Below, piece after piece: positions 12,973 through 38,677 of a stretch of DNA of 38,677 bases. Where the stretch lies: the IMG/VR virus record IMGVR_UViG_3300027419_000019, one strand, 5' to 3'. The position numbers and the translations under genes are program-made. Source of the DNA: a virus. The notes below the pieces were generated by a model, which did not search any database, had not been told where the DNA came from, and worked only from the letters and a program-made list of their open reading frames with translations. How positions within the stretch are numbered: the first letter of the stretch is position 1; each line of letters starts with the position of its first letter.

Positions 12973-13059
12973 AGTACTATTGGAGCGCTATGCCCATATC
13001 CCTACACCGCACGTAAGGGAGGGCAAAAACCATATACGGGGTATACGCAATATATTATC

Positions 13060-13490: not shown

Positions 13491-13494
13491 GTGA

Positions 13495-13994: not shown

Positions 13995-13997
13995 ATC

Positions 13998-14846: not shown

Positions 14847-16313
14847 TTATACCCTCTCTTTCTTCTTCTCGGCTGCGAGGTCCTCGGTTGCGTTCGCCAG
14901 TTTCAGCAGGGCACGGCGCTCCTGGTCCCGCCCGAGGTCCTCCTCCGGCTCTCCCTCCTCGATACCGAGCGTTGCCTGGAGGAACGACCGGGCCCCGCTC
15001 TTGTTGGTGATGCCCGCGGCCGCGGCCTTGGTGACGATCTCCGCTTTCTGGAGCTGGGCGCCGAAAGCGTTCTGATTCGCGGCTGCGTTGCGTTCCCTGA
15101 GGGCAGCGAGTTCCGCGCCATCGAGCGGTTTAAGGATGCTTGCGACCCGCGGGCCTCCCGCCTCTGACAGCAGGGCCCGGTGCTCGTTCTCCCCGATCGA
15201 GAAGCCCTTACCCTCTGTTGCGATCTTGATGATGTCGGCCGACCGGTCGATCTCGGGTGAGACCATCTTGACAATGATCTGATATCCCTTCTCCTCGTAG
15301 CCATTATAGATGAGCCACGGTTTGAGGAGCATATAAGTGTCCCATTCGATCCACCGCTGCTGCCCGCGGATTGATGAGATATACTTCCGGAGCTCGGCGG
15401 TGTTCGTGCCCCCTACGAGTTGCCCGCCATCCTTGCCGAGATCGGACCGGATGAAGAACCTGCGGAGCTGGCTGCCGATCTCGGTGATGGTTTCGAGTGC
15501 CGAGCCGTCCCCGGAGATCCCGAGGTTCACGACACTCATGTTCTCCCGGAGCGGGAAGCGCTTGGTGCTGCTGGTGTTCTGGAGCAGCTTCTTCGCGTAT
15601 GCGACATCATCACCCTGCGCCTGATCGACCTTGATAGACCAGATCCCGCCATCGCCCCACTGGTTGACCTTCGCCATCTGTCGCTGCCAGGAGTAATTCA
15701 GCATCTTGATGTACGGGAAGATCGGCATGATGAACGGCGTTCCCCCGAGCTCGGAGGAGAGTGGGTCGATGGTCATGTGGACGTTGGTGAGCTGGGACAC
15801 CTGCCCGTTCCGCTGGGTCTGCCAGAACTCTATCTCCCCGGTCTTCTCATTCACGCAGATCCCGGGCAGCAGGCGATTATACACCAGCGTTGAGGACTTG
15901 CCCTTCTTCGCGAACGAGTCCGGGGGCAGCCGGTTCAGCTTCATCAGCCGGTACTCAGGACCTTCATAGTCCCATACTGGATTTGTGAGGGCCGGACCCC
16001 ATGCCTTGACATCCCGCCATCGTTTCTGCGTGCTGAAGTTCAGGGCAACGTCCCGGTTGGTGATCACCATATCGTTGAGCGCAGAGGTGAGATCGGAATC
16101 CTCCTCTTTGTTTTTATCCACGACAGTGATCTGGATATCGTCCTGGAAGATGACGGTCTGCATGTCATCCAGACCCTCGACCACATACTTGTTTTCGAGG
16201 ATCTTCTGGTTCTCGGTTGCGTTATACTTCGGTGCCTTGAACGTCTGCCCGTCGCTGCGGACGTAGGTCGTTCCTTCTTCTTTTGCCGGTTCTCCTTTCT
16301 TTGCTGCTGCCAT
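14847..16313 (-). CDS. Portal protein.
   Basis: 488-aa ORF between TerL and the gp7-like gene. Size and position are canonical and the C-terminal tail is acidic. Confidence 0.75.
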   Translation of the reverse strand: MAAAKKGEPAKEEGTTYVRSDGQTFKAPKYNATENQKILENKYVVEGLDDMQTVIFQDDIQITVVDKNKEEDSDLTSALNDMVITNRDVALNFSTQKRWRDVKAWGPALTNPVWDYEGPEYRLMKLNRLPPDSFAKKGKSSTLVYNRLLPGICVNEKTGEIEFWQTQRNGQVSQLTNVHMTIDPLSSELGGTPFIMPIFPYIKMLNYSWQRQMAKVNQWGDGGIWSIKVDQAQGDDVAYAKKLLQNTSSTKRFPLRENMSVVNLGISGDGSALETITEIGSQLRRFFIRSDLGKDGGQLVGGTNTAELRKYISSIRGQQRWIEWDTYMLLKPWLIYNGYEEKGYQIIVKMVSPEIDRSADIIKIATEGKGFSIGENEHRALLSEAGGPRVASILKPLDGAELAALRERNAAANQNAFGAQLQKAEIVTKAAAAGITNKSGARSFLQATLGIEEGEPEEDLGRDQERRALLKLANATEDLAAEKKKERV

Positions 16314-16317
16314 GATA

Positions 16318-17826
16318 TTACCCGAATAAGTCTCCTAACTCGTCCTCGTATCCGATGCCGCTGTCCTCGTCAAACGAGTCATTGGAGCCCGCCGCGGTGA
16401 TGTCGTCGGATTTGAATTCGTTGGCCAGATTGCGGAACTGTTCCCCGAGCGTCAGGTCATAGTGGGCTCCGCTCAACGTATCCACCCCGTCATCATGATC
16501 GCCATTCGGGAACATCGTCACTTCATCCAGGAAGGCACTGTTCCAGTCTCCCCGAACGATGAATACATTCCCCGCCTCAGCCGCAGCTGAGACCGGCTGG
16601 GCGCGGACCTCTTTTGAGCCCGTTGAGGGGACACCTTTGAATGCGAATCCCTTGAGGATGTGGCGAGCATAATGATCGATCGTATTGAGCCCCGAGCTTC
16701 CCGGCTCCTGCTCCATCCTTATGAGGACCTGCGGGCCGTCCTCCATGGCTTTTTGTCTTACGAGTTTCTCGACGCCGGCGGGATTCTCCTGGACTCGGGC
16801 CCAATGGATGATCCAGAACTGACCGTTTAATGTCCCGTACCTCAGGCCAGATGTCCAGTCCCCTTTCCGTTGTGAGGCCGCGAGATCCCAGCGCCGGACC
16901 TGCCGGCAGTTTGCGGGGAAACTGTCGACGATCTTAAACCAGTGGCGTTTGAACATACCTCCTTCCTGGGGCACCGGGTGCTGCTGATAAAGAGCGGCCC
17001 AATAATACGATCCTGCTGTCCTCTTGATGCGGGCGAGGTCAGACACTCCAAACCGTGCGGGCCAGAGCGGATCGCCCGGTTTCCTCCCGATAATATCGTC
17101 AGTCTCGGCGACTGCGGGAAGATTGATCACGTCCCAGACTTCTCCATTGTTCTCCATATCGGTGAGAATCTTGCCGGCAAGGTCGCCCTGGTTCCACCGC
17201 GTCATAATCAAGATGAGGGCGCCGCTTGGTTCCAGACGAGTGTAGAGGGTTGATTGGTACCACTCCCAAGCTTTCTCCCGATAGGTCCTGCTCGACGCCT
17301 GCTCTGCGTTCTTGACCGGGTCGTCGATAATAATAAGGTGCCCTCCTTTCCCGGTGATCGGGCCCATGACGCCGGCTGTTGTCATGCCGCCTGTGTGGCC
17401 TTTGATATCCCAGCGGCTTGCCGCGGATGAGTCGGGCAATACTTCAATCGCCTCGATGAAAGCGAGTTTGCCGTGCTCCTCGACTATCTCACGGGCCCGC
17501 CTGCCCCACTGTGCCGCGAAGTCTGCTTCGTAGCTGGTGAGGATGACTCTGCGATCCGGAAACGTCCCGAGATACCAGGCGGTGAAGTATTTGCTGATGA
17601 ACTCGCTTTTGCCGTGACGCGGGGGCATGAAAACCATCAGCCGCGTGCACTTGCCGGCTGCTACGTCCAGCAGCTTATCATTCAGCAGCTCAAGGTGTCG
17701 CGGGCAGGTCCACCGGCCCCCGCTGACACTATGAGCGAGCATCCGCGGGCTTGGCGGAAAGGGTGTTAAAGACCTTTCTTTCGTACTCACGGTATCCCTC
17801 CGTTCCCAGAATCTTCTCGATATCAA
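16318..17826 (-). CDS. terL: Terminase large subunit. The true start is possibly at 17742.
   Basis: Walker A-like MVFMPPRHGKSEF, Walker B LIIIDDPVK, and C-terminal nuclease acidic motifs (…MFPNGDHDDGVDTLSGA…). MLAHSV… at 17742 is the alternative start. Confidence 0.9.
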   Translation of the reverse strand: MISRRFWERRDTVSTKERSLTPFPPSPRMLAHSVSGGRWTCPRHLELLNDKLLDVAAGKCTRLMVFMPPRHGKSEFISKYFTAWYLGTFPDRRVILTSYEADFAAQWGRRAREIVEEHGKLAFIEAIEVLPDSSAASRWDIKGHTGGMTTAGVMGPITGKGGHLIIIDDPVKNAEQASSRTYREKAWEWYQSTLYTRLEPSGALILIMTRWNQGDLAGKILTDMENNGEVWDVINLPAVAETDDIIGRKPGDPLWPARFGVSDLARIKRTAGSYYWAALYQQHPVPQEGGMFKRHWFKIVDSFPANCRQVRRWDLAASQRKGDWTSGLRYGTLNGQFWIIHWARVQENPAGVEKLVRQKAMEDGPQVLIRMEQEPGSSGLNTIDHYARHILKGFAFKGVPSTGSKEVRAQPVSAAAEAGNVFIVRGDWNSAFLDEVTMFPNGDHDDGVDTLSGAHYDLTLGEQFRNLANEFKSDDITAAGSNDSFDEDSGIGYEDELGDLFG

Positions 17827-21390: not shown

Positions 21391-21408
21391 GATTGAAAAG
21401 AGGGGGGA

Positions 21409-21651
21409 TTATTTTCCGCGGATGGTTATCATATCGATCCGCTCAGCAAAGGGTTCCACCCAGCATCGGCAATTCGGTGCCGGGGGCATATCAATGTCCG
21501 TTATTTCTTGACCGCACCGAAGGCAATGACACCGTTTCATGGGAATTTGGAAACCATCGGTGTACCCGGCTTCTTTGCAGTGCTCCCAATCACTCCACCG
21601 GTGCCCGAAATGGCGGCAGAGTTTTTTATTGATCCATTTAAGGAGCTTCAT
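21409..21651 (-). CDS. Cys/His-rich zinc-finger mini-protein.
   Basis: 80 aa: …KKLCRHFGHRW…HCKEAG…RCHCLRCGQE…PNCRCW…. Confidence 0.6.
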   Translation of the reverse strand: MKLLKWINKKLCRHFGHRWSDWEHCKEAGYTDGFQIPMKRCHCLRCGQEITDIDMPPAPNCRCWVEPFAERIDMITIRGK

Positions 21652-21657
21652 CGCCGA

Positions 21658-21804
21658 TCACACCTCTTTGTATTCAATCATTCCCTGGTCACTACTCACG
21701 ACCCGGGCGCACCTAGAGCACTTTCTCTCGTAGATTGGGGGAATGCAGCACTTCACCCGATGCTCGATCTTGCCCCCGCATTCCTTACAGTATTCAATGA
21801 TCAA
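21658..21804 (-). CDS. 48-aa zinc-ribbon mini-ORF (below the track cutoff; TTG start inferred).
   Basis: Hand translation gives (M)IIEYCKECGGKIEHRVKCCIPPIYERKCSRCARVVSSDQGMIEYKEV. It fills the gap between neighbouring genes. Confidence 0.4.
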   Translation of the reverse strand: MIIEYCKECGGKIEHRVKCCIPPIYERKCSRCARVVSSDQGMIEYKEV

Positions 21805-22057
21805 TAAGATCCCCCTCGTCGATTCCACCATATCGCTCGATGGCGTTCTTCTCCATTTTTCTTACATCTTCTTTGGAAAATTGTCTCTTTGATAGGACAT
21901 TACCCTGATGATCCAGACGATATATCGTTCCACCACAGTTATTACAGAGGAGTGCGATCGAGAATTCGGACCCGGGAGAGCCTCGGCCCGGCACGAAGCC
22001 TTTCCGTTCTCTTCCGCATTCACATTCAAAGATTTTTGCCTGCGTTGTTCCCATCAT
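21794..22057 (-). CDS. Zinc-ribbon mini-protein.
   Basis: 87 aa with CECG…CNNCG (a CxC…CxxC pair). Confidence 0.6.
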   Translation of the reverse strand: MMGTTQAKIFECECGRERKGFVPGRGSPGSEFSIALLCNNCGGTIYRLDHQGNVLSKRQFSKEDVRKMEKNAIERYGGIDEGDLIDH

Positions 22058-22377
22058 TCCACCTTTGCCGCTGCCGGCTCATCAACATTTCCCCGCCGGA
22101 CCCCTTGCGCCTGTTCTTCGATAAGATCTAATAAATGGAGCCGGTAACATTCCGGGCAGGTGTGATCGTCGTTCTCCTGCGGCACCCAATTAGGCCGGGC
22201 GTATTTGAGCTTGCATTTCCGCCCGTGCCGGTCTTTGCACCTGGACTTGCCATTCTTGAACTTGTGCACTACTCGCATATTATCTGATGGCCGGCTCCCG
22301 AGTCCCCAGATATAGCATACTTTTTTCCCATCGGGCTTTGCCGGTGCCGTGCTTCGTGTCGGTTCGTTGCCGGTCAA
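22054..22377 (-). CDS. Basic Cys-containing protein. A TTG start at 22377 is inferred; the track ORF extends to 22407.
   Basis: …KNGKSRCKDRHGRKCKLKYARPNW…HTCPECYRLHL…. The TTG at 22377 would give a TTGA overlap with the upstream stop, matching the operon's coupling pattern. Confidence 0.5.
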   Translation of the reverse strand: MTGNEPTRSTAPAKPDGKKVCYIWGLGSRPSDNMRVVHKFKNGKSRCKDRHGRKCKLKYARPNWVPQENDDHTCPECYRLHLLDLIEEQAQGVRRGNVDEPAAAKVE

Positions 22378-22559
22378 TCTGCCGTCGCCTCCTCTAACGG
22401 GCACCAATCGGGGAATTGGGCCGGATTGTCGATCTCCCTATTCGGGCGAGTTTTCCCACATCTCGGTTTAGGAAGATAGTGCCCCGGATTTTTCTTATCG
22501 ACGGTCTTGCGAGCCGGGCAACCGTAACAATTACGAACGGTGATTAAAATCCGCTTCAC
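22374..22559 (-). CDS. Cys-containing mini-protein.
   Basis: 61 aa: MKRILITVRNCYGCPARK…PRCGKTRPN…PDWCPLEE. Confidence 0.55.
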   Translation of the reverse strand: MKRILITVRNCYGCPARKTVDKKNPGHYLPKPRCGKTRPNREIDNPAQFPDWCPLEEATAD

Positions 22560-22747
22560 GTTCCCAGCCTCCTGCGGATCTCCGCGAGCAGTTCATCGGT
22601 GGTGAACTCGTGGATGTGCTTTGCCACGCTCGTGGTGTATGCCGGGAAATCATCAGACGTATGATATATGCACCCGAAACAACCCATTTGGGGGGCGCTG
22701 TTGCCTTCTTTCGGACAGTTGGCATAAAACGGTCTTGAGCAGCCCAT
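22556..22747 (-). CDS. Cys-containing mini-protein (C-terminal 63 codons of track ORF 22556..23137).
   Basis: MGCSRPFYANCPKEGNSAPQMGCFGCIYH…FTTDELLAEIRRRLGT. The ATG at 22747 is 2 nt after the stop of the GINS-like gene. The rest of the 193-aa track ORF is a P/R/G-rich alternative frame of that gene. Confidence 0.55.
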   Translation of the reverse strand: MGCSRPFYANCPKEGNSAPQMGCFGCIYHTSDDFPAYTTSVAKHIHEFTTDELLAEIRRRLGT

Positions 22748-23750: not shown

Positions 23751-23884
23751 GTCTTCACCTTCCGCCCTGCATTGTAGAACGTGATCCGCTCGTACCGTTT
23801 CTCGTCACCCGGGCCGATCACATTTCCTTTCATCGGGGCCTCTGCCTTTTTGGTGTCGGGACCCGATCCTGCTGCCCGGCACAT
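23747..23884 (-). CDS. 45-aa mini-ORF (C-terminal part of track ORF 23747..23995).
   Basis: MCRAAGSGPDTKKAEAPMKGNVIGPGDEKRYERITFYNAGRKVKT. The ATG at 23884 forms a TGATG overlap with the radical-SAM stop. Confidence 0.4.
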   Translation of the reverse strand: MCRAAGSGPDTKKAEAPMKGNVIGPGDEKRYERITFYNAGRKVKT

Positions 23885-24687
23885 CAGCAGGTCACCCCCG
23901 CTGCCTGCAGGTACGGTTGCAGGTCCTTCTTGAAGATGAATTTCTGGTTGTGGTGCCTGAGGAGGGCCTCGGCTCGCTGCACAAAGATCCTCCATTCATC
24001 ATCCGTCGGGTACCTGTACCCGGTTTTGCGGATGACTTCCTCGACATCGGGGATATTGGCGTGGTTGAACTTTCCGATCCGGTACTCGTCAACGAATCCG
24101 AGCGTTTGCCGGATCAGGTTGATGGTCTGGTCCGGGAAGACCACCGGCTCGAAGGATACCCACGTACGGATCCCGCGTTTCTTCGCCTCTCTGAGGGCCT
24201 CGATGCGTTCCGGCGTATGGGCCGCCCCGGGCTCCCAGATGCCCTTATCCTTGAGATTGTCGAAGACGAGCGTGGTCCCGTACCTGCAGAGCTCCGGGTG
24301 TTCGGCCATGAGGTCGAAGTCCCGGGTGCTGCGAGGTCCTCCTGCTTTCGTCAGGATCGTGAAGTGCAGCCCGTGCCGGATCAGGATCTCGATTGCCTTC
24401 CTGGTCAGCTGCAACTCATAGTCGAGCGGCTGGTATGGGTCAGTGGAGAAGCTGATCAGGATCTCCCGCTGGTCCTTGGCCGCTGCGAGTTCGGCACAGT
24501 CCTTCTCGAACTTCTTCAGGAAGTCCGGTTTCGGCTTTGCGGATTTTGAGAACTCGTCTGCACACATCCCCCGGATTTCAAGATTGAAACAGTAGATACA
24601 GCCATGACCGCAGCAGACATAAGGCCCGGAGATTGACAGCGGGGCATACTCTGCAGCACGGCCCCGGGGCACGTAGATGAGCCTCAT
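23884..24687 (-). CDS. Radical SAM enzyme, SplB/COG1533-like ('DNA repair photolyase' family).
   Basis: The N-terminal cluster GPYVCCGHGCIYCF is CxxxCxxC in the GC.HGC.YC context typical of COG1533. It is 267 aa with TIM-barrel-like alternating b/a segments (…ILISFSTDPYQP…FTILTKA…VSFEPV…). Confidence 0.75.
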   Translation of the reverse strand: MRLIYVPRGRAAEYAPLSISGPYVCCGHGCIYCFNLEIRGMCADEFSKSAKPKPDFLKKFEKDCAELAAAKDQREILISFSTDPYQPLDYELQLTRKAIEILIRHGLHFTILTKAGGPRSTRDFDLMAEHPELCRYGTTLVFDNLKDKGIWEPGAAHTPERIEALREAKKRGIRTWVSFEPVVFPDQTINLIRQTLGFVDEYRIGKFNHANIPDVEEVIRKTGYRYPTDDEWRIFVQRAEALLRHHNQKFIFKKDLQPYLQAAGVTC

Positions 24688-25096: not shown

Positions 25097-25822
25097 TCAA
25101 TCCCCCTCCAGCCTTGGCGCGAGGAAATACCCGCATTCCATCCCGTCCAGCTCGAAGTCGAACCGGATCGGGTGGTCCTGGCCGAGCAGTGCCGTGCACG
25201 TGCTCGCCCCTTTCATTGCCTTGCCGATCTCCTTCAGGTAGTCCAGCGAGAACAGCGAGCGGACTGCTGCGTCCGGCACCTGGCACTTTCCTGTCGATTC
25301 GAGGACCTTGTGCAGCTGATCAGTGTCCCCCTCCGCATCCAGGGCCAGCCCTTCCTTGCAGGTACCGAGCCGGACCTTGTCGCTGATCACGCCCATGGCC
25401 TTGATCGCTTCCTGCAGCTGGCCGGCATCGATGTCGATCGCGGCGGGGAGTGAGAGGGACGGCGGGTTCGGGCGCTTGCGGACCGTTTGGACGTCGAGCG
25501 GTGTGTGCTTGACCGTGTACCTGCCATCAGACATGATGAGCCGGCCTTCCTTCCGCTCGATCGTGATCGTGCTTTTTTCATCGTCCATGACCTTCAGGAA
25601 GTCTTTCAGCTTCATGAGGTCCAGCCCGATCTCGGCCTTCTCGGTCTCGGTGAATTCGTCGAACTGTGCTTTCGGCAGATTGGCGCTGACCATCGCGACG
25701 TTCGCGGTGTCCACGGCAAGGGTGTTCCACCCCTGATCGGTAATCATCAGCCTGCATTCCGGCACCAGGGCGCTCAGGACATTGCAGAACGCACTGAGCC
25801 GGGTCTGGGGGATCTTCATCAT
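25097..25822 (-). CDS. pcna: PCNA (archaeal/eukaryal-type DNA sliding clamp).
   Basis: 241 aa with a two-domain clamp pattern: …FCNVLSALVPECRLMITDQGWNTLAVDTANVAMVSANLPKAQFDEF…SLFSLDYLKEIGKAM…IRFDFELDGMECGYFLAPRLE. The terminal 'Y.LAPR.E' is a PCNA hallmark. Confidence 0.85.
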   Translation of the reverse strand: MMKIPQTRLSAFCNVLSALVPECRLMITDQGWNTLAVDTANVAMVSANLPKAQFDEFTETEKAEIGLDLMKLKDFLKVMDDEKSTITIERKEGRLIMSDGRYTVKHTPLDVQTVRKRPNPPSLSLPAAIDIDAGQLQEAIKAMGVISDKVRLGTCKEGLALDAEGDTDQLHKVLESTGKCQVPDAAVRSLFSLDYLKEIGKAMKGASTCTALLGQDHPIRFDFELDGMECGYFLAPRLEGD

Positions 25823-28800
25823 GGGGTTTCACACTCCTTCGGTTTCTTCGGGGATCGTTTCTTCTTCGATGGTGGTTTTTTCTCGGCGATTTTGACTCCG
25901 GGTTTCCAGCCACTACATCCGTCTTTTTTGACGGAAGAGATGAGATCTTCCGCTTTTAATTTCCCACTCACAACATCGTCGAAAGAGGGGCAATCTCTTA
26001 GGATGATCCCCCCACCGCACCCCAGACAATTATCGCAGTTTTTTTCCGCACCGTATTCTTTCGAGGGTTCCTTATGCTCTACCAACTGCTTGAGGGCGTG
26101 CATCCTCTTTCCCTGGGGGAGGTCCTGGACCGGGTTGATGATTTCAACACCATGGAAGGCCCCCTCGATAATGCGCTGGTGGATCTGTCCGCAGAGGAGA
26201 GTGATCTTTTTCACTACTGCGAGGTCCGGATCGGCCTTGGCCCGCTGCTGGACCATGTCGAAGAATTCCGGATCATTCTCGATATCCTCCGGTGAGACAT
26301 CGTAGTTCTCGATCTCGTCTCCCGGGCGAATCAGGCCGTACTTGTCGGAGAGGATGTAATACTCGTCCCCCTCAAACACGTGCTCTGCATATTTCCTTGC
26401 CAGAGTGAAGAGGGGCCCGGTATATGCTTCACGGGCGACAACGCGGGCCGGGGTCTTCTTCCTTCCCTTCGCGGGTTCATCCCAGATTTTGGCCTTTCCG
26501 CAGGAGATGATACAGATCTCGCGGTATCCCCATCGGGGCGATGCGGGTTCTCCATCCTCCTCAAGTCTCCTTACGTGTTCTTCGAATTCCCAGCAGCCGT
26601 CATTGCCATCTTCATCGATACACTCGATCTTGCAGACCTTGCACGGCCCCTCGATATCATCGGTAGGATAATCTGGCTTCGGTCTTGGCCTTAAGGAGAA
26701 GTGGACCTTTGAACCATCCGGGCGGGTCTCCTCGATTTGATTCTTGATGGAGACGGCCCCCTGGTAGGTATCCGCCCCTTCGTACAGCCATTCACCTTTT
26801 GCGGGGTCGTGCTTCCAGACCTCCCAGATCCAGCCGGGATTATTCCTGCGTTTTGCCTCGGTGAGCGCTTCGAACCACTCTGGAGTGTCCCGTTTCGGTT
26901 TTACCGGCTTGATGGGGACGCTGCAACCCACCGCCGCCCTCTCTTCGAAGGTCTTCCTATCACACCTCTCACTGATCGTGCAGTTGCCAAGATCGTTGAT
27001 CTCCTTGCATCGATCGTTCTTATCGAGCCAGTGCCCGCATCTCTCCCGCTGTGTCTCCTCCATCAGGACCTTGGCACTCTTGGTTCCTTTCATGAACAGG
27101 AGTTCTCCAAGGCGTGGACATGAGGGGTGGAATGTTTTCTTGCCCTTGTGATGGCCGCAGGTCCCGCAGGTGCCGGGAGTCGGGCCACCGGGACCGGCCG
27201 GGTGACGGCCTTGCTCTCCCTCGTCCCGCTCCTCCTGGGCTTTGATGATGGCCTTCACCGCATCCAGGCAACCGGCATAAGGATCCCTCCTCAGGCAGTC
27301 CTTGTAGACGTCACACTCGATGCAGACCTGTGAAATGGGGTTTTCAGGATCGGGGCGGGAAGGCCCCCTGGTCCTCTTTATCAGGCACTTTGGATCGTCC
27401 TGGCCCTTGCAGCCATCTTCGCACTTATCACAAACGTCGTGCCAAATTTGCTTGACGGTCTTCCCTGTAGTATCATAGATCGCGGCCTGCTTGCTGGTGT
27501 CTTTTTCCTCCTTGATTTCCCTGGGCGCCGTTTGATCCGGCTCCTCCCCTCCAAACGTGAACAGGCCGATCGGCTGCTGCTGCAGCTCGCGGACCGCGAT
27601 CGCGTGGGTCTTCGGCTCGATCTCGAACCCGATCCACTCCATACCAAGCAGGTTGGCGGCAATCAGGGACGTGCCGGTACCCGCATACGGGTCCAGCAGG
27701 ATCTCCCCGGGTGCCATGAACCGGCTGATAATGCCGAGAACATCATGCACGGACTGCTGCCATGGGTGGAATTTCTTCTGCCTGAAGCCACGGACAACAT
27801 CCGAGAAACACCTTCGGACTCCTTTGATGTCCCCTCCTTCCGGGATCTTCTGGAAGACGAGAATCGGTTTGTGCAGGCAGAGGGCGTTCCACTTGTGGGC
27901 TTTCACGGCCGGTCCTGAGTTCAAGGAGGAGATGATCCAGAAGTAGACCAGCGTGCAGCCGTCCTTGAGGTCCGGGTCATGAGAGCAATACAGCTGCTCC
28001 ATGATCTCGGCAAGGTGGGCCTGCGGGGCATACGTGAATAGGAACCCGTACGGTTTCAGGACCCGGGTTGCGAGCTCGCAGAGGTCCGCGTATGCCTGCT
28101 CCCATAGTTCCTTGATATACGGCGGATCGGTGAAAATCCCATCAACCGAGCACGACGGGACCTTTTCGCCCAGCTCCACCACGTCGCCCAGGTGCACGGT
28201 CCCGAGTTGGAGGTCCGTGATCCATGCCCGCCGGCCCTTGGTCTTCTGGTCTTCCTTGCACCCGGCACAGACGTACCCGGGGATCGGCTTGCCGTATCGT
28301 TCACGGCAGTCTTCGCAGACGTGATCGGATTTCGCCTTACGCTTGCGCTTCTCAGGGGTTGCCGTCTTTTCTGAGGACAATACCGGTTTCGAGTTGTCTC
28401 CTGAAGGGGTCTCGCGATCCGGGTGCTCCCTGAGGTACTCTTCGGCATCCTGAAGGCAACCGGCATAAGCCGGGGCGAACATGCACTTGCCGGCCCACTT
28501 GCATGATGTGGGGCAGCCGGCACGGTTCAACTCCTCAGTGTTATCAGTGTGTGGTTTTTCTACGTTTTCTGTAGGTTCCTGTACCCGAGTGGCGGCCGAG
28601 GCCTTCAACAACTTCGGGGGGATTTTCCAGAGCGGGCAGCCGCGGCCACCATAGAGGGCCGATTTCTTCATCCGAATTATCGGGCAGAGTTCGGTATTCC
28701 CGTCAATCCACTCGTCGCGATCTTTCCCGTCCGGGCATACACCCATGGCACACATTCCCATGACGGGGTTGTCATCCCTGCAATGCTCAAGGCGCATTTC

Positions 28801-29235
28801 CACCAGGGTGCGGAGCCGTTCGATCTGGTCTTCTTGCCGAGGGTTTCCGAGCACGTTGCACGGGCAGACTGCAAAGGAGCCGAGAGCCCAGCCGGTCAGC
28901 GCACAGACGCCTTTTTTGACCTTGCGGCCCTTCTCGCTCTCACCTTCCGACACCAGTTTGTACGGGCAGGCGTCCGGGCAGTTCTTCACGCCAGGGCTTG
29001 GGCTGTTGAACTCACTGGTGTTGAGCCGGGCGCTGATGCGGCGGATAAACTGCTCATCGTCCATTTCCTTGACGCACATCGGCATGGCGCCCGGCATCCC
29101 GTGAATAACGGCACATGTTTGCGGGCTGTCCGGATATTCGGGATCTCGCTGCAGGTCCGGGCACTTCCTCGCCCGGCAGTCCTTGATGCCCCACTTGCTC
29201 TCTTTCTTCTCCGGGGCTCCGCAGCAATCGCTCAT
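25819..29235 (-). CDS. Giant Cys-rich multidomain protein. It has an N-terminal Cys-rich region, a beta-class N6/N4 DNA methyltransferase (DPPY), a Cys-rich linker, a DUF6884/YaaA-like domain and a Lys-rich tail.
   Basis: Track ORF 25819..29265 (1148 aa). MSDCCG at 29235 forms an ATGA overlap with the wHTH stop. MTase motif IV is SVDGIFTDPPY (28117-28128). Motif I is ILLDPYAGTGTSLIAANLLGMEWIGFEIEP (about 27670-27693). The C-terminal ICIISCGKAK…AREAYTGPLFTLARKYAE…YYILSDKYGLIRPGDEIENYDV (26080-26523) resembles DUF6884. Confidence 0.8.
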   Translation of the reverse strand: MSDCCGAPEKKESKWGIKDCRARKCPDLQRDPEYPDSPQTCAVIHGMPGAMPMCVKEMDDEQFIRRISARLNTSEFNSPSPGVKNCPDACPYKLVSEGESEKGRKVKKGVCALTGWALGSFAVCPCNVLGNPRQEDQIERLRTLVEMRLEHCRDDNPVMGMCAMGVCPDGKDRDEWIDGNTELCPIIRMKKSALYGGRGCPLWKIPPKLLKASAATRVQEPTENVEKPHTDNTEELNRAGCPTSCKWAGKCMFAPAYAGCLQDAEEYLREHPDRETPSGDNSKPVLSSEKTATPEKRKRKAKSDHVCEDCRERYGKPIPGYVCAGCKEDQKTKGRRAWITDLQLGTVHLGDVVELGEKVPSCSVDGIFTDPPYIKELWEQAYADLCELATRVLKPYGFLFTYAPQAHLAEIMEQLYCSHDPDLKDGCTLVYFWIISSLNSGPAVKAHKWNALCLHKPILVFQKIPEGGDIKGVRRCFSDVVRGFRQKKFHPWQQSVHDVLGIISRFMAPGEILLDPYAGTGTSLIAANLLGMEWIGFEIEPKTHAIAVRELQQQPIGLFTFGGEEPDQTAPREIKEEKDTSKQAAIYDTTGKTVKQIWHDVCDKCEDGCKGQDDPKCLIKRTRGPSRPDPENPISQVCIECDVYKDCLRRDPYAGCLDAVKAIIKAQEERDEGEQGRHPAGPGGPTPGTCGTCGHHKGKKTFHPSCPRLGELLFMKGTKSAKVLMEETQRERCGHWLDKNDRCKEINDLGNCTISERCDRKTFEERAAVGCSVPIKPVKPKRDTPEWFEALTEAKRRNNPGWIWEVWKHDPAKGEWLYEGADTYQGAVSIKNQIEETRPDGSKVHFSLRPRPKPDYPTDDIEGPCKVCKIECIDEDGNDGCWEFEEHVRRLEEDGEPASPRWGYREICIISCGKAKIWDEPAKGRKKTPARVVAREAYTGPLFTLARKYAEHVFEGDEYYILSDKYGLIRPGDEIENYDVSPEDIENDPEFFDMVQQRAKADPDLAVVKKITLLCGQIHQRIIEGAFHGVEIINPVQDLPQGKRMHALKQLVEHKEPSKEYGAEKNCDNCLGCGGGIILRDCPSFDDVVSGKLKAEDLISSVKKDGCSGWKPGVKIAEKKPPSKKKRSPKKPKECETP

Positions 29236-29492
29236 CGCTGCACCCCCGGTACCGCCCGCTTCCACAGGTGCTTGTGGCCCCGTCCTCCGGCTCCCGGCAC
29301 GCCCTCCATCAGGATCCGGCCCTTCTTCTTGAGCGTGTAGAGATGGTTCACGACCGTGCTTTTGTGGTAGCCGGTGGCCCGCACTACGTCTGCGGTCGGT
29401 ATCGACTCGGCCGGGTTGGCTGGGATGGCATCGAGGATCCGCTGCGCCATGATGGGATCGCGCTGTTTGAATTCCAGTCCTTTGAGGCTCAT
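29232..29492 (-). CDS. Winged-helix DNA-binding protein.
   Basis: MSLKGLEFKQRDPIMAQRILDAIPANPAESIPTADVVRATGYHKSTVVNHLYTLKKKGRILMEG fits a MarR/ArsR-type wHTH. Both ends are in ATGA overlaps. The track ORF extends to 29723. Confidence 0.6.
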   Translation of the reverse strand: MSLKGLEFKQRDPIMAQRILDAIPANPAESIPTADVVRATGYHKSTVVNHLYTLKKKGRILMEGVPGAGGRGHKHLWKRAVPGVQR

Positions 29493-34782: not shown

Positions 34783-35239
34783 CGCGCTTCACCACCTCAT
34801 ATGATATCCGGGGCTCGCCGGGCCGGTACAGGAACGACTCGAACACTGCCTTCTGCGGAATGGCCCTCTTGAGCTCGGCATGCGTGATCGCGGTCCCGAG
34901 CGTCCGGAACTGTTCGCGAACTCTCTCCACGAGGAAGAGGCGCTGCCATTTCTGGATCGTCTCGATGATTTCCGGCTTTTCTGCACGGAGTTTCTCGATA
35001 TCGACCTTCTGCACCGGGGGCGTCACCCTCGCGACGAGCCGGCAGAGGTCATCCTGCTCGATGTGATTGCTGACGGCGTATTCCATCAGGGTTAGACGCT
35101 GCGTGCTCAGCTCGGCGATCTGCTCATGGAGGGTGGCGATCTTCTGGTCGATGTAATAGACCTGCGTGAGCGGGTCCATGATGGCGACCGGGGGCAGCGG
35201 GTCTTCCCTCAGGGATTGCGTCTCTTCGCGGGCGTCCAT
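34775..35239 (-). CDS. Hypothetical coiled-coil protein (Gam / Sipho_Gp157-like architecture?).
   Basis: 154 aa. It has an N-terminal heptad helix (…IDQKIATLHEQIAELSTQRLTLMEYA…) then …VDIEKLRAEKPEIIETIQKW…. The similarity is by general layout only. Confidence 0.3.
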   Translation of the reverse strand: MDAREETQSLREDPLPPVAIMDPLTQVYYIDQKIATLHEQIAELSTQRLTLMEYAVSNHIEQDDLCRLVARVTPPVQKVDIEKLRAEKPEIIETIQKWQRLFLVERVREQFRTLGTAITHAELKRAIPQKAVFESFLYRPGEPRISYEVVKRDV

Positions 35240-35240
35240 C

Positions 35241-35582
35241 TCACTGCACCCCCGCCTTTTCCCTCAGGTATCCGATATTCCCTGACACCCGCAGGCAACC
35301 GGCAATCGCTCCGGCCGTGCCCCGCATGTCACATTCCTTACCGGGGCAGAGCTGGCCGCAGAAGTTCCGGATCTCGTTTAGGAGCTGGATGGTGACGAGG
35401 GGTTCGCTCTTCGGAGTTGCCCCACAATAATAGCAGACCCCCTCATCAAGCCGGTCCCGGTCATCCCTCAGCGGGCGGCCGCAGGACGAGCAATACAGTA
35501 AGGGCACCTCAGTGACGATGGGCCGGGGCCGCCCTACGTGGACGATCTCCATTGTAGCACCGGGTGCGGGTCCGTGAGCCAT
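35241..35582 (-). CDS. Zinc-ribbon protein carrying the shared Cys4 '…AGCL' module.
   Basis: MAHGPAPG…LLYCSSCGRPL…VCYYCGAT…FCGQLCPGKECDMRGTAGAIAGCLRV…. The start at 35582 forms a TGATG overlap with the upstream mini-ORF. The track ORF extends to 35768. Confidence 0.6.
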   Translation of the reverse strand: MAHGPAPGATMEIVHVGRPRPIVTEVPLLYCSSCGRPLRDDRDRLDEGVCYYCGATPKSEPLVTIQLLNEIRNFCGQLCPGKECDMRGTAGAIAGCLRVSGNIGYLREKAGVQ

Positions 35583-35713
35583 CACCAGTTCACCTCCCCG
35601 CAGCACCGATCGTACCGGGGGCACCGGTGCTCGATGCAGCGTTCGTGATAGCATGTCTCCACCAGAGTGACATCGGACGTTTCCGGGTTCTGCTGGATGC
35701 GGACGCGCTTCAT
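35582..35713 (-). CDS. 43-aa Cys-rich mini-ORF (below the track cutoff).
   Basis: Hand translation gives MKRVRIQQNPETSDVTLVETCYHERCIEHRCPRYDRCCGEVNW. It has an ATGA overlap upstream and a TGATG overlap downstream. Confidence 0.45.
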   Translation of the reverse strand: MKRVRIQQNPETSDVTLVETCYHERCIEHRCPRYDRCCGEVNW

Positions 35714-36060
35714 GATGCCACCAGGTCCCCGGCAACCGTGCCGAATGGTGTTGGCGTGTTAGCCGCAATCCTCGCGTTCAGGATGGCCAGCGCAGTCTCC
35801 GCGTCGATCAGCGGGTGGATGCGCTTTAGGGTCCGAACCTCAATGGCGTCGATCTCGTCACCACGGACGAGCTCGTTCCTGCCCGGCTGCGAGAAGTAAA
35901 AGATGCCGTCAACTTCCCTTACGAGCTCGAAGGAAAGCATTTTCAGGTCGTGATTCGATACTTTGCTGGCAGTCGCACCCTTCTCCTCGTTTCCAGCGGC
36001 GGAGAGGCTGCTGCCATCCTCACTTTTTGCTGATTCTGTTGATTGCTGCATGCTGACCAC
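35710..36060 (-). CDS. Hypothetical protein (start uncertain).
   Basis: 116-aa track ORF. The N-terminal 40 aa are low-complexity Ser/Ala/Glu and overlap the AbrB-like gene end. MLSFELVREVDGIFYFSQPGRNELVRGDEIDAIEV… is an alternative start at 35940. Confidence 0.55.
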   Translation of the reverse strand: MVSMQQSTESAKSEDGSSLSAAGNEEKGATASKVSNHDLKMLSFELVREVDGIFYFSQPGRNELVRGDEIDAIEVRTLKRIHPLIDAETALAILNARIAANTPTPFGTVAGDLVAS

Positions 36061-36208
36061 ATTCCTTTGACACTACAAGTGTTGTTCCTACACGATCCAT
36101 CTGGAGTTTGTCCCCGAAGGTCCACCCCAGTTCTCTGATCAGGCGCGAGGGAATTGTCGCCCTATGCGCCCCGTTCCCGACTTTTGTCAGTGTTGCTGAT
36201 TCAGTCAT
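36020..36208 (-). CDS. AbrB/SpoVT/MazE-type (swapped-hairpin) transcription regulator, first gene of the long minus-strand transcription unit.
   Basis: MTESATLTKVGNGAHRATIPSRLIRELGWTFGDKLQMDRVGTTLVVSK matches the AbrB-like pattern (v.vg..g.~~tIP..ir..lg...GD.l…). GAGGTGA lies 3 nt upstream of the ATG at 36208. The track ORF extends to 36301. Confidence 0.65.
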   Translation of the reverse strand: MTESATLTKVGNGAHRATIPSRLIRELGWTFGDKLQMDRVGTTLVVSKECGQHAAINRISKK

Positions 36209-36246
36209 AGTCACCTCTTGACGACTAGGTATTACCACGATAAAGG

Positions 36247-36260
36247 TATAAACTTTTCGG
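36247..36260 (-). promoter_or_regulatory. Candidate archaeal BRE/TATA promoter for the early operon.
   Basis: The minus strand reads CGAAAAG-TTTATA-CC, about 40 nt upstream of the AbrB-like ATG. That spacing leaves a short Shine-Dalgarno-containing leader. Confidence 0.4.
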
Positions 36261-36502
36261 GACTTGCTTGAAAAAGAGAGGAGTATTATTACCGCACGCA
36301 CAGCGGAGCCCGGACCCTGCGCCGGAACCCGGGGTCGGCCTTCGGGTACTCGGGTGTGGCGAAGACGCCTTTCCTGAGCTGCCGGATCGCTGCTCGGATG
36401 CTCTTGAGCTTCAGCATATGTGAGATATTTCTAACATTTGAAGTATTTAAAGTTTTTTTGAAATGTCCGCCCATGCCAGCGAGGTGCGGTAAAATAGCAG
36501 CC

Positions 36503-36512
36503 TTTTTATTTT
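36503..36512 (+). promoter_or_regulatory. Candidate TATA box for a (near-)leaderless acyltransferase transcript.
   Basis: CTTTTTATTT is centred about 30 nt upstream of the ATG at 36537, with no obvious SD in between. The region is an AT-rich divergent intergenic stretch. Confidence 0.35.
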
Positions 36513-36536
36513 TCCGATGGAACATTTTAACCTGCA

Positions 36537-37481
36537 ATGGCCCGTAAAAAGCAGGTAGTCGCTCCAACCCCCCATAAGGATCGGTTATTGTTCTTTGACC
36601 TTCTGAAGATCCTATTTATCGCCATAATCGTTTACGACCACTCGCAGCTCTTCATCCTCAGGGATTTTAATGGCCTGCTGTTCTCCGATGGCTGGAACTT
36701 CTATAATATTTATATCAACGGACTCACGGGAATCGCAGTTTACGGCATGTTTTTTATCAGCGGGGCGGTGCTGGAATACTCATATAAGAGAGTTGGCACA
36801 TGGGAGTCGTATTATACCTTCATTAAGAACCGTGTGACACGATTATATCCCGCGTTCTGGATGAGCTTGATCCTGGGTCTGGCGCTTGTCATAATTACGA
36901 ACGCATCCATCACGGCACAAATATTCGTAAGTTCCCTGCCGGACATCCTGTTTGAGTATACGGGGTACTATGTCCTTTTGAATCAGGGGCCGGGTCTCAT
37001 CAACAATATGAGCTGGTTTATCGCTGCAATCGTATCCATTTATCTTATTTTTCCCCTTGTCTCCGACACAGTCAGGAAGTACCGGATATATGCGATCGTC
37101 GCTTTTATGATCGTAAGCTTCAGCTTGCGGGTCCTCCTGCTCACTTATGCCGGAAGTATTCCGCAAGATCTTCTGTGGAGGTGGTTCCCCCTCTGCAACC
37201 TCTTCGAGTTCGGACTCGGGATCTATATCATACAAGCCGGGATTTACCCGAAGATCCCGAACACATCTACAGTCCTGCGGGAACTTGTCGATCTTAGCTT
37301 CTACGTCTTCCTCTTCCACATGATCGTAATCTGGAGCGTAATCCCGATACTGCCAAAAACAGGGCCGGAATACATCGGGGTTATTGCTTACTTCCTGATG
37401 ATGGCGGTGATGCTTGCGGTCTGTTGGATCGTGATGACGATCGATAAAAAAATCCAGAAGGGGCTCCGTCAATCCGGTTGA
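36537..37481 (+). CDS. Acyltransferase family 3 (integral-membrane O-acyltransferase).
   Basis: 314 aa with about 10 hydrophobic helices. The N-terminal signature LLFFDLLKILFIAIIVYDHSQL corresponds to the AT3 'D.lR..a...Vv..H' motif. Local GC is visibly lower than in the rest of the genome. Confidence 0.8.
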   Translation: MARKKQVVAPTPHKDRLLFFDLLKILFIAIIVYDHSQLFILRDFNGLLFSDGWNFYNIYINGLTGIAVYGMFFISGAVLEYSYKRVGTWESYYTFIKNRVTRLYPAFWMSLILGLALVIITNASITAQIFVSSLPDILFEYTGYYVLLNQGPGLINNMSWFIAAIVSIYLIFPLVSDTVRKYRIYAIVAFMIVSFSLRVLLLTYAGSIPQDLLWRWFPLCNLFEFGLGIYIIQAGIYPKIPNTSTVLRELVDLSFYVFLFHMIVIWSVIPILPKTGPEYIGVIAYFLMMAVMLAVCWIVMTIDKKIQKGLRQSG

Positions 37482-37627
37482 GCGAGCGGCTCCAGGAGGA
37501 CGACAGCGACCTTTTTACCAACCCATGCAATAGGGACGAACACTCTTCCAGAGTCCCCGCTGTTTTTCACTTCCTTCTCTAAAAAAGCATATCCCTCTAT
37601 ATTTAATTCCTGTTTTTTCAGCATCAT
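37469..37627 (-). CDS. DUF2080/AbrB-like archaeal mini-protein.
   Basis: MMLKKQELNIEGYAFLEKEVKNSGDSGRVFVPIAWVGKKVAVVLLE matches the archaeal DUF2080 pattern as I recall it (…K.V…GnSg.V.vP..W.Gk.V.V…). The track ORF extends to 37687. Confidence 0.5.
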   Translation of the reverse strand: MMLKKQELNIEGYAFLEKEVKNSGDSGRVFVPIAWVGKKVAVVLLEPLAQPD

Positions 37628-37645
37628 CACCCTGTAATAATCTAG

Positions 37646-37712
37646 CAATAATATGGCAATAAAATATAAATACCTAACCCGTATCACAATAATATGACAA
37701 TAAAATTGTCAT
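37646..37712. promoter_or_regulatory. Operator-like repeats in a divergent promoter region.
   Basis: A 20-bp direct repeat, CAATAATATGGCAATAAAAT (37646-37665) and CAATAATATGACAATAAAAT (37687-37706), matches at 19 of 20 positions. The second copy overlaps a perfect palindrome ATGACAAT-AAA-ATTGTCAT (37694-37712). Confidence 0.6.
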
Positions 37713-37721
37713 GAGTGAGGA

Positions 37722-38144
37722 TTGATGAAAAAGACTGTTATTGCCCTCATCGCGTTCTGGTTGATCGCGGTGATCGTTGCAGCTCCCGTAACTGCGGGTG
37801 ATTGCGTCGTACCTCCCGATGAATACTTCATCACCGATGGTCCACACAACGGCCAGCCGGTGCATGGTGGCCTGCAGCTCGGCTTTGTGTTCTGGACCTT
37901 TGACAATGGCCACAACCAGTATGCCGGAAGCCACTATCTTGGAATCACCGAGTATAAGCTGAAGGAGAGCCACGCGGAGCAGGAAAAGATCGCGATGGGT
38001 AAGCTCTGGTACTGCCAGACGATTCCGGATTTTCCTTACGATCCAATGTATCCGGAGCGCTGGGGCGCCCACGTCAGCGAGGATCCGTATGATTCAGAGT
38101 ACCTGAGTACTCAGGAGATGCGGGCGCGAGATGTCCCGGTTTGA
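37722..38144 (+). CDS. Secreted or membrane-anchored accessory protein of unknown function.
   Basis: 140 aa. The N-terminus KKTVIALIAFWLIAVIVAAPVTAGDC looks like a signal peptide, possibly with a lipobox-like Cys. GTGAGG lies upstream. The likely ATG is at 37725. Confidence 0.65.
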   Translation: MMKKTVIALIAFWLIAVIVAAPVTAGDCVVPPDEYFITDGPHNGQPVHGGLQLGFVFWTFDNGHNQYAGSHYLGITEYKLKESHAEQEKIAMGKLWYCQTIPDFPYDPMYPERWGAHVSEDPYDSEYLSTQEMRARDVPV

Positions 38145-38180
38145 TCCCCCTGCACGTTCCCTTTTTTTCAGGAGAGAAAA
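38145..38180. terminator. Convergent intergenic region with an oligo-T tract (candidate archaeal terminator).
   Basis: CCCTTTTTTTC (T7 at about 38162-38168) follows the plus-strand gene. The opposite strand reads AATTTTCTCTCC just after the fibre stop. Confidence 0.35.
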
Positions 38181-38677
38181 TTAGAATGGGCCGTAACCAT
38201 CTGCATTCCTGAACTGCACGAATACCAGGTCAGTCACGGCCGGAGTAGTCTCGGTGTAGAACCAGAGTATATCATCTACAGCCACGGTGATATCTACATC
38301 AGTGCCGTAGTTTCCTGCCGTGCCCCCCCCGAGCTGCGCCCCTGTACCATTGATGTAATAGGTGATGACTTTCCCTGTCTGGTCGCCACCCGACGCCCGG
38401 TTTTTCATGCGGATGTTGTATACTCCGGCCCGTTTGATGATCCCGCCAGCCATTTTTACATCTGTAGGATGCAAGAGGAGCGTTTCGCACTGGACCGTCC
38501 CAGTGACTGAACTTGTGGCGAATGCGTCAAGGACGTATTTCATAAATGTCAACACAGTCGTGCCGAAATTTGCAATTGTGGTGTTGGTCACGCGCCACGC
38601 CGTGCCCCCATTGACCGTCCCCCCCGTTACGGCAATGCTCGCCCCGAGCGCGAGTGCTGCTGATGTGAAATCTGCCG
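38181..38677 (-). CDS. Tail fibre / receptor-binding protein, C-terminal part (same ORF as 1-977 across the circular junction).
   Basis: Track ORF 38181..38591 starts inside the terminal repeat and is in frame with the ORF leaving position 1. The beta-rich C-terminus (…VITYYINGTGAQLGGGTAGNYGTDVDITV…) fits a fibre tip. It is the last gene of the tail operon. Confidence 0.7.
   Translation of the reverse strand, partial: ADFTSAALALGASIAVTGGTVNGGTAWRVTNTTIANFGTTVLTFMKYVLDAFATSSVTGTVQCETLLLHPTDVKMAGGIIKRAGVYNIRMKNRASGGDQTGKVITYYINGTGAQLGGGTAGNYGTDVDITVAVDDILWFYTETTPAVTDLVFVQFRNADGYGPF
38551..38677. repeat. Terminal direct repeat, copy 2 (equals 1-127).
   Basis: Same 127-nt string as the window start. 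The unique genome length is therefore 38550 bp. Confidence 0.95.

Follow-up and report, generated by a model that had tools for sequence, protein, structure and literature searches.

A membrane O-acyltransferase encoded where the tail genes of an archaeal virus end raises a simple question: does the enzyme edit the surface of the infected cell, as related enzymes of bacteriophages do, or does it act elsewhere? The virus is that of IMG/VR record IMGVR_UViG_3300027419_000019, and the window, by which we mean the whole stretch of DNA analysed, is 38,677 nucleotides (nt) long. The gene encodes a protein of the AT3 family and shares the interval between a candidate tail-fibre gene and the early operon with orf42, a DUF2080 mini-protein gene and a gene for a small secreted or membrane-anchored protein (Table 1). 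AT3 genes carried as morons are textbook knowledge in bacteriophages, and surface-glycan editing is well established for Shigella and Salmonella phages. Archaeal envelopes are made of S-layer and appendage glycoproteins and have no lipopolysaccharide (LPS); to our knowledge, very little has been learned about which receptors methanogen viruses use or how they exclude one another. An earlier note on this DNA had proposed that the AT3, DUF2080 and secreted-protein genes form an AT-rich island for surface modification or superinfection exclusion. We find that the AT3 gene is under purifying selection and derives from a chromosome of the host lineage, and that a related viral lineage appears to have recruited a different host AT3 to the same end of its tail module. 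We therefore weighed surface-glycan O-acylation, our favoured reading, against four alternatives.

An AT3-only acyltransferase under purifying selection

Membership of the AT3 family is established at the level of sequence. The protein matches Pfam PF01757 with an E-value of 2.6e-19 (69.9 bits, cut-off 31) and phrog_3333, 'O-acetyltransferase', with an E-value of 1.2e-14, and it carries K24-x10-H35, FFISG at residues 72-76 and R99-V-T-R102. The first and last of these correspond to R/K-X10-H in the first transmembrane segment and RXXR in the first cytoplasmic loop, the essential AT3 motifs described for OafA/OafB and Oac (PMC9558356). Across an alignment of 33 homologues H35, S75, G76, R99 and R102 are invariant, and position 24, where the virus has K24, shows a consensus of R. 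With both profile matches and intact motifs, the membrane acyltransferase recognised in the earlier note is confirmed. A crude hydropathy scan counted about nine hydrophobic segments and found the N-terminus, the RXXR loop (residues 80-104) and the C-terminus to be rich in K and R, a positive-inside pattern; since both termini are K/R-rich, an even number of membrane segments is implied, against the nine of the crude scan; about ten transmembrane helices are typical of the family. Pfam detected no SGNH domain in the protein, which makes it AT3-only, like Oac.

Comparison with the 95%-identical copy in the related virus L024 revealed 40 differing sites, 24 synonymous and 16 non-synonymous, giving a ratio of non-synonymous to synonymous substitution rates (dN/dS) of 0.18; the AT3 is thus under purifying selection. 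All amino-acid differences fall within the first ~100 residues, where L024 keeps the RXXR motif as R-V-I-R, and the DUF2080 and secreted-protein genes of the two viruses are 100% identical in nucleotide sequence. With the differences confined to the start of the AT3 gene and the genes beyond it identical, the pattern points to a recombination breakpoint within the AT3 gene. The cassette is present in at least three samples or assemblies. Judged by its sequence, the AT3 looks functional.

Capture from the host lineage, and a second capture in the vir524 lineage

Our searches yielded 143 AT3 homologues, and all the named ones belong to Methanoregula or Methanomicrobiales (44-56% identity), on contigs of up to 2.8 Mb. 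The chromosomal proteins P0002-P0007 are 49-56% identical to the viral protein over its full length and share its motifs and AT3-only architecture, and they are slightly longer (321-340 amino acids (aa)). When placed against host genomes, as the earlier note had suggested, the viral AT3 nests among Methanoregula-type chromosomal genes in a neighbour-joining (NJ) tree. The presence of homologues on chromosomes, together with this nesting, indicates that the AT3 was captured from a host-lineage chromosome. P0004 and P0007, which are among the closest homologues, share a chromosomal locus made up of an Lhr helicase, the TATA-binding protein (TBP), two AMP-binding (acetyl-CoA-synthetase-like) genes and the AT3, and near window-type cellular AT3s there is a second transmembrane acyltransferase (HGSNAT_cat). 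As a separate observation, the window-type cellular loci in L011-L013 (7474-11023) and on the P0004 contig combine two acetyl-CoA-synthetase-like genes, an AT3 fragment and HGSNAT_cat.

Among deposited viruses the closest is Caudoviricetes sp. vir524 (GenBank BK063669.1, host Methanomicrobiales), whose large terminase (TerL) is 56% identical to that of our virus. Its record annotates an 'O-acetyltransferase' on the strand opposite the late genes, overlapping the 3' end of a 1134-aa gene in the fibre position and followed by a tRNA-Leu and an integrase. In both viruses the AT3 sits where the tail module ends distally and is read from the strand that the late genes do not use; they differ in its immediate surroundings, which are the fibre-gene end, tRNA-Leu and integrase in vir524, and orf42 and DUF2080 in our virus. 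Three further vir524-like IMG/VR contigs keep the AT3 abutting the fibre gene, so that with vir524 itself all four lineage variants retain it. Across these variants identity to vir524 is 46-65% for the AT3, 64-70% for the fibre and 83% for the integrase (L028 only), and the AT3 therefore diverges as fast as the fibre or faster.

The vir524 AT3 shares only 38% identity with the AT3 of our virus and 62% with P0118, a separate cellular AT3, whose gene adjoins three Pilin_N genes and a PMT_2-family glycosyltransferase; the corresponding locus is L043 5006-10861. The two viral AT3s belong to separate clades, and each is more similar to a cellular gene of its own (56% and 62% identity) than to the other. 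From the NJ tree and these pairwise identities, it appears that two related viral lineages independently recruited different host AT3s to the same end of the tail module. This repeated recruitment beside the fibre gene is the strongest indirect argument that ties the role of the enzyme to host recognition.

A proposed surface-glycan acylation role and its strongest competitor

We favour, at about even confidence, the reading that the AT3 is a moron-type surface-glycan O-acylation gene analogous to Oac of phage Sf6. The captured enzyme would insert into the membrane of the infected cell, take up an acyl group on the cytoplasmic side, probably acetyl from acetyl-CoA, and O-acylate an extracytoplasmic glycan, which could be that of the S-layer glycoprotein, of archaellin or pilin, or of a lipid-linked precursor. 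A surface altered in this way might change recognition by the tail fibres of this or competing viruses, with an outcome resembling that of Sf6 Oac: receptor masking, superinfection exclusion, or progeny kept from adsorbing to cells already infected. General phage biology suggests that, without integration, the same chemistry could act in lytic infection by masking receptors on infected cells or debris. More tentatively, we propose as a possible generalisation that tailed viruses of Methanomicrobiales have repeatedly taken up different host AT3s beside their receptor-binding tail genes, as an archaeal counterpart of serotype conversion in which O-acylated glycans of the S-layer, archaellum or pilus would keep the same or competing viruses from adsorbing.

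The bacteriophage precedent given in the earlier note is accurate: Sf6 Oac acetylates O-antigen and confers superinfection immunity, and its gene maps beside the integrase gene. Oac and the AT3 studied here are both virus-encoded and AT3-only, carry R/K-X10-H and RXXR, and are moron-type additions at the edge of a structural module. Their resemblance is one of family, with no close sequence relationship, and the integrase that neighbours oac in Sf6, as it neighbours the AT3 in vir524, has no equivalent beside the gene in our virus. Because an archaeal host has no LPS, the acceptor of this AT3 cannot be O-antigen, unlike that of Sf6 Oac. Salmonella OafA and OafB (GtrC of prophage BTP1) likewise have the AT3 domain and its motifs and modify surface glycans, OafB being prophage-borne, but they are AT3-SGNH fusions whereas the protein of our virus has no SGNH domain. 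Membership of the class of serotype-converting prophage acetylases is not established: the integrase that marks a temperate element is present in vir524 and was not recognised among the ORFs scanned here.

Several points weigh against the surface-glycan reading. Among the open reading frames (ORFs) scanned in our virus, every large one included, neither an integrase nor another lysogeny gene was recognised, and classical lysogenic conversion is therefore not established for this virus. The earlier note had placed the AT3 next to the fibre gene; the two do lie in the same interval between fibre gene and early operon, but two genes separate the AT3 from the fibre stop codon at 38181. The chromosomal homologues of the window's AT3 clade have no obvious glycosylation cluster around them. 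In a scan of the genome collection with an alignment of Tal, the single archaeal match was a distant locus in Methanogenium cariaci (38% identity), the others being bacterial prophages; no host emerged from it. In Halorubrum lacusprofundi, loss of N-glycosylation had no effect on the tailed virus HRTV-DL1 (PMC10384203), so archaeal tailed viruses do not all rely on glycans as their receptor. Finally, AT3 proteins are also known to act on non-surface substrates such as antibiotics and Nod factors (PMC9558356).

The leading alternative is that the AT3 serves host or virus through a substrate unrelated to adsorption, such as a secreted or lipid-linked glycan, an exopolysaccharide (EPS) or a membrane glycolipid. 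The gain would then be envelope stability, stress tolerance or predator evasion, and the gene would be an auxiliary or fitness gene, not an exclusion device. The breadth of AT3 substrate classes, which extends to EPS and enterobacterial common antigen (ECA) as well (PMC9558356), suits this explanation, as do the acetyl-CoA-synthetase-like and HGSNAT_cat neighbours of the window-clade cellular homologues, which do not form a receptor locus, and the lack of a recognised integrase in the scanned ORFs. We nevertheless regard it as unlikely. Both independent captures placed the gene next to the receptor-binding tail end, the AT3 of the vir524 lineage diverges in step with the fibre, and the cellular relative of the vir524 AT3 sits beside pilin and glycosyltransferase genes, that is, among genes for surface structures.

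If the AT3 does act on an envelope glycan, viral surface-glycan editing would extend to archaeal envelopes, and a glycan would be indicated as a receptor determinant for this virus group. AT3 enzymes in archaeal viruses, and virus-encoded glycan acylation in Archaea more broadly, were undiscussed in the literature we searched, which included a survey from 2026 covering 3708 genomes of archaeal viruses and the paper on Blf4, a lytic virus of Methanoculleus, in keeping with the earlier note's view of the subject as essentially unexplored; AT3 is annotated in one archaeal virus GenBank record, that of vir524. What the present analysis adds are the two independent host-to-virus captures suggested by the tree, the variable haplotypes described below, and the resolution of the 'island' into two cassettes at an apparent recombination hot spot.

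The AT3 and DUF2080 genes are strain-specific cargo

The three genes of mixed orientation described in the earlier note, AT3 on the plus strand, DUF2080 on the minus strand and the secreted-protein gene on the plus strand, were found where it had put them, as profile matches and hydropathy attest. They do not amount to a single acquired island: the interval holds a fourth gene, orf42, and the secreted-protein gene recurs in relatives without an AT3. In a comparison that the earlier note had proposed, the content of the interval varies among related viruses, the AT3 being absent at the site in L022 and absent from the recovered DNA of L014/L015, L016 and L026.

In L023, whose structural genes are 99.5% identical in nucleotide sequence and whose fibre C-terminus is 100% identical in amino acids, an HTH_17 (excisionase-like) gene replaces DUF2080 and the secreted protein is 74% identical; homology breaks near window position 37746, and the contig ends before the AT3 position. 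L024, from the same sample as L023, carries orf42, AT3, DUF2080 and the secreted-protein gene. Its match to the window begins at 36291, and to the left of the orf42 stop codon the two sequences are unrelated; the orf42 stop is thus the left mosaic junction. The more distant L022 presents a six-tRNA array, an orf42-like gene (minus), a 48-aa zinc-ribbon gene (plus), a secreted protein of 76% identity (plus) and the fibre gene (minus), with both AT3 and DUF2080 absent. The six tRNAs of L022 (87-639; two Ser and four Leu) lie at the late/early junction immediately beyond the orf42-like gene, the place where vir524 has its tRNA-Leu.

Further relatives vary in the same interval. L016 (Tal 58% identical) has the fibre gene, a gene for a 44-aa ribbon-helix-helix (RHH)-like protein, a distant secreted-protein homologue (25%, E 7e-6) and an inverted orf42-like gene, with no AT3 in the recovered DNA. 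L014/L015 (Tal 61%) have no AT3 within 8.6 kb past the fibre gene. L026, a 44% GC contig with related tail genes, encodes a secreted-protein homologue (46%) ~3.4 kb from the fibre ORF and no AT3 in recovered DNA. In L022 and L023 the gene for the secreted-protein homologue converges on the fibre gene, and in L016 it lies just downstream on the same strand; four relatives carry the gene, three of them near the fibre gene, and it is always paired with a small gene of DNA-binding type. Since it recurs in relatives that lack an AT3, the island is a composite of two cassettes, not one acquisition.

Homologues of orf42 were found in L016 (6186-6341, 44% identity), L022 (654-773) and L024, the L016 copy pointing the other way with respect to the fibre gene. 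We considered orf42 as an integrase remnant or att site and rejected this, as it is conserved at the protein level and has no similarity to the vir524 integrase. AT3 and DUF2080 are strain-specific cargo lodged between orf42 and the secreted-protein cassette, and the interval between fibre gene and early operon is best explained, from these sequence comparisons, as a recombination hot spot for cargo in Methanomicrobiales siphoviruses. One sample, ERZ27247100, contains both the AT3-plus haplotype (L024) and the HTH_17 haplotype (L023, with the AT3 side beyond its contig end), which offers a natural comparison. Were the surface-glycan reading true, the coexistence of haplotypes with and without an AT3 would promote diversity of surface glycans, and competition among viruses, within populations of methanogens, for which methanogenic digesters and hydrocarbon-degrading consortia are relevant settings.

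Base composition bears on how the cargo arrived. The GC content of 36302-38180 is 0.487 against 0.581 elsewhere (z = -5.4 over 19 non-overlapping windows of the same size), and the lowest-GC window of island size in the whole genome begins at 35887. In raw composition, then, the AT-rich island of the earlier note stands as the genome minimum; in codon usage the case is weaker, GC at third codon positions (GC3) of the AT3 gene being 0.638, mildly low and no outlier among 42 minus-strand ORFs (mean 0.697, z = -0.6). DUF2080 has a GC3 of 0.49 (z = -2.05). Set against 15 annotated core genes (GC3 about 0.76), the AT3 reaches a z of about -2. GC at second codon positions of the AT3 is 0.337, a value normal for membrane proteins. 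GC falls lowest between genes (0.37 at 37500-37700), and 36400-36599 has a GC of 0.415. The drop in GC is largely due to hydrophobic amino-acid content and AT-rich intergenic and promoter DNA, and codon usage of the AT3 is not clearly foreign.

Patchy distribution among relatives and a place at mosaic junctions are also what one would see if the AT3 were a recent passenger with no selected function, hitch-hiking at a recombination hot spot, and its GC3, similar to that of the genome, leaves the capture undatable by composition. We think this quite improbable given the dN/dS value, the intact reading frame and catalytic motifs in two diverged alleles, the recovery of the cassette from several samples or assemblies, and the retention of the AT3 throughout the vir524 lineage despite strong divergence.

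The secreted protein is probably not an obligate partner of the acyltransferase

The secreted protein has no family match in Pfam, PHROGs, PADLOC or NCBIfam and belongs to a rare family, with 17 representatives among 1.84 billion proteins. Its conserved motifs are C..PPDxYFxTDG..NGQPVH, KESHxxQ and YC..PDFPY, including an invariant Ser and Gln and a near-invariant His (S82, H83 and Q86). AlphaFold2 models were of low confidence, with a predicted local distance difference test (pLDDT) score of 36.8 from 5 sequences and 57.9 from 15, and Foldseek returned no fold match for the model in PDB or BFVD. Multi-domain proteins that matched the secreted-protein profile (P0146, P0147 and P0152) were discounted as repeat or low-complexity matches to unrelated proteins of the fibronectin type III (FN3) kind.

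AT3-only proteins may need partners (PMC9558356), and the conserved Ser, His and Gln make the secreted protein a conceivable one. We therefore considered whether AT3, DUF2080 and the secreted protein form one obligate machine, in which the secreted protein would be the transferase partner, like the SGNH domain of OafA, and DUF2080 the regulator. That the genes are contiguous, and that DUF2080 and the secreted-protein gene are unchanged in L024, would agree with such an arrangement. The family distribution speaks otherwise: in L022 the site holds the secreted-protein gene and no AT3, the DNA recovered for L016 and L026 includes that gene and no AT3 anywhere, and the AT3s of the vir524 lineage have no secreted-protein neighbour. 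The protein is also too small for an SGNH fold and matches no SGNH family. We give this arrangement little chance.

DUF2080 and the regulatory elements of the interval

The mini-protein matches Pfam PF09853 (E 1.8e-7; 31.2 bits, cut-off 21.5) and NCBIfam NF033496, named 'transposase-associated' (E 7.8e-14; 51 bits, cut-off 22). In its canonical context a DUF2080 gene immediately precedes a transposase gene, an arrangement seen on a Haladaptatus plasmid; a DUF2080 antitoxin (SpnP2/DUF2080) has been validated experimentally (PMC10440598), and the C-terminal domain of CalpT is a DUF2080. The protein of our virus resembles these relatives in matching the family above curated cut-offs and differs in its context: its gene and that of the secreted protein point away from each other across a promoter region with repeats, and no transposase, toxin or sigma factor is adjacent. 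No transposase was found in the island or in any scanned ORF of the window, and no toxin-like or sigma-factor gene neighbours DUF2080; the sole ORF directly following it is antisense to the AT3 and of low complexity. No island protein matched a defence-system profile in PADLOC. In Blf4, a hypothetical protein of 121 aa (24185-24550; L040 4752-5117) resembles DUF2080 at its C-terminus, with 45% identity over 38 aa; its gene lies two genes past the last annotated structural gene, with no annotated transposase within 5 kb. The sole match of DUF2080 to PDB by sequence, a designed coiled coil, is meaningless, and DUF2080 has no detectable similarity to the AbrB-like early protein. Inverted repeats around the AT3 (36533-36551 and 37511-37529; 74% complementary) were judged to be due to chance.

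An origin of the island as the remnant of a transposon or of a toxin-antitoxin or defence module, which the family name, the canonical context and the validated antitoxin would bring to mind, we consider very improbable, since there is no transposase, toxin-like ORF, convincing terminal inverted repeat, target duplication or PADLOC match, and lytic Blf4 has its DUF2080-like domain at the same late/early junction without an annotated transposase nearby.

The region between the divergent DUF2080 and secreted-protein genes contains two exact 20-nt repeats, CAATAATATGRCAATAAAAT, at 37646-37665 and 37687-37706, with a degenerate copy at 37635. The repeat occurs just twice in the window, where 100 shuffles gave an expectation of 0. 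Each consists of CAATAAWAT half-sites with 11-nt spacing, and the repeats flank the TATA-like AAAATATAAATA (37661-37672); GAGGA at 37717-37721 precedes the secreted-protein ATG at 37725. This organisation makes 37628-37724 a candidate operator and promoter, and we infer that DUF2080 is a small putative DNA-binding regulator acting at the 20-nt repeats. The region 36421-36536 is a candidate promoter of the AT3, from which the transcript may be leaderless. Strict TATA-like octamers number seven genome-wide, and two of the seven, each on the minus strand, fall within the island (37670, before DUF2080, and 36451, before orf42), so the island does have TATA-like elements of its own, as the earlier note had claimed. 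A scan for bacterial-type promoters and terminators found no terminators, a scan type that is uninformative for an archaeal virus.

Genome context

The virus is a siphovirus with a complete, circularly permuted genome of 38,550 unique bases, the two ends of the window forming an exact 127-nt terminal direct repeat (1-127 = 38551-38677). The source samples are SRR5248198, ERZ27247100 and JGI 3300001866 and 3300027958. We assign it to the archaeal viruses because it encodes PCNA, its relatives are from Methanomicrobiales only, and it has archaeal elements resembling a transcription factor B recognition element (BRE) and TATA box. Outside the island, all recognisable genes are on the minus strand, in the late and early operons, and the AT3 runs opposite to both. 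The 448-aa gene is a candidate for the fibre or receptor-binding protein, named from its position: its PHROG matches are mixed ('head protein', 'head decoration' and the tail fiber phrog_11518, E 7.6e-11), and it has no match in Pfam. The virus also encodes a ParB-like protein. ARAGORN found no tRNA in the whole window, and Rfam no non-coding RNA in the island (E ≤ 1). A blastn search of GenBank phages with 35000-38677 gave zero matches, and a scan of IMG/VR with the Tal protein gave none either, missing even the window itself.

Table 1. Features of the interval between the fibre gene and the early operon, and of the surrounding genome
Feature	Position	Strand	Remarks
AT3-only membrane O-acyltransferase, 314 aa	36537-37481	+	Pfam PF01757 and phrog_3333
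DUF2080 mini-protein, 52 aa	37469-37627	-	3' end overlaps AT3 3' end by 13 nt, convergent
Small secreted/membrane-anchored protein, 139 aa	37725-38144	+	One N-terminal hydrophobic segment, residues 4-22; convergent with fibre gene
orf42, small basic protein ending P-L/M-CVR	36289-36420	-	Own TATA-like box 36444-36451; family of ~42-50 aa
Intergenic region 5' of AT3	36421-36536		Palindromic TATTTAAA at 36444-36451 is the TATA-like box of orf42 (-)
T-rich TTTTTATTTTT	36503-36513		~29 nt ahead of AT3 ATG; sequence reading
AT-rich intergenic region between divergent DUF2080 and secreted-protein genes	37628-37724		97 nt
Tail-tip/fibre candidate, 448 aa	977 to 1, then 38550 to 38181 over the circular junction	-	Directly after tape measure, Dit and Tal; 448 aa also called in L007
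Tal, Sipho_Gp37	986-2155	-	
Dit	2159-3097	-	
Tape measure (TMP)	3100-5145	-	
Portal position	14847-16313	-	
Large terminase (TerL)	16318-17826	-	
Mu-F-like head protein		-	
PCNA sliding clamp	25097-25822	-	Replication region; vir524 also encodes PCNA
First early gene, 63 aa, AbrB/SpoVT-like by eye	36020-36260	-	phrog_661, E 2.2e-5; context of early promoter
BRE/TATA-like element CCGAAAAGTTTATACC of first early gene	36260-36245	-	Read in sequence

Two antisense ORFs in the island, 36843-37472 (minus, 209 aa), which lies against the AT3 and begins 4 nt from the DUF2080 stop, and 37674-38072 (minus, 132 aa), against the secreted-protein gene, were rejected as spurious: both oppose conserved genes and are acidic or of low complexity.

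Additional observations concern the genome at large and one of its relatives. A 1148-aa fusion (25819-29265, minus) joins an N6/N4 DNA methyltransferase domain to a C-terminal DUF6884, and the DUF6884 domain also matches the PADLOC candidate defence protein PDC-M57A (E 4.6e-16). The replication region further encodes a radical-SAM protein (23884-24687, minus). A lower-GC patch (0.50-0.54) at 21400-22560 (minus) holds five successive small, Cys-rich, zinc-ribbon-like ORFs of 57-117 aa, and a second low-GC patch, with AT skew reversed, spans 13000-14000. L014 (190-9822) and L015 (5016-14262), from the same sequencing run as this virus, are related to it only in the tail module (tube, TMP, Dit, Tal and fibre). 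The flanks of this element carry genes of archaeal cells (TFIIE-alpha, Trm56, ATP-grasp, FilR1 and TPR), and no head genes are visible upstream; we regard it as a possible defective provirus or tailocin-like element.

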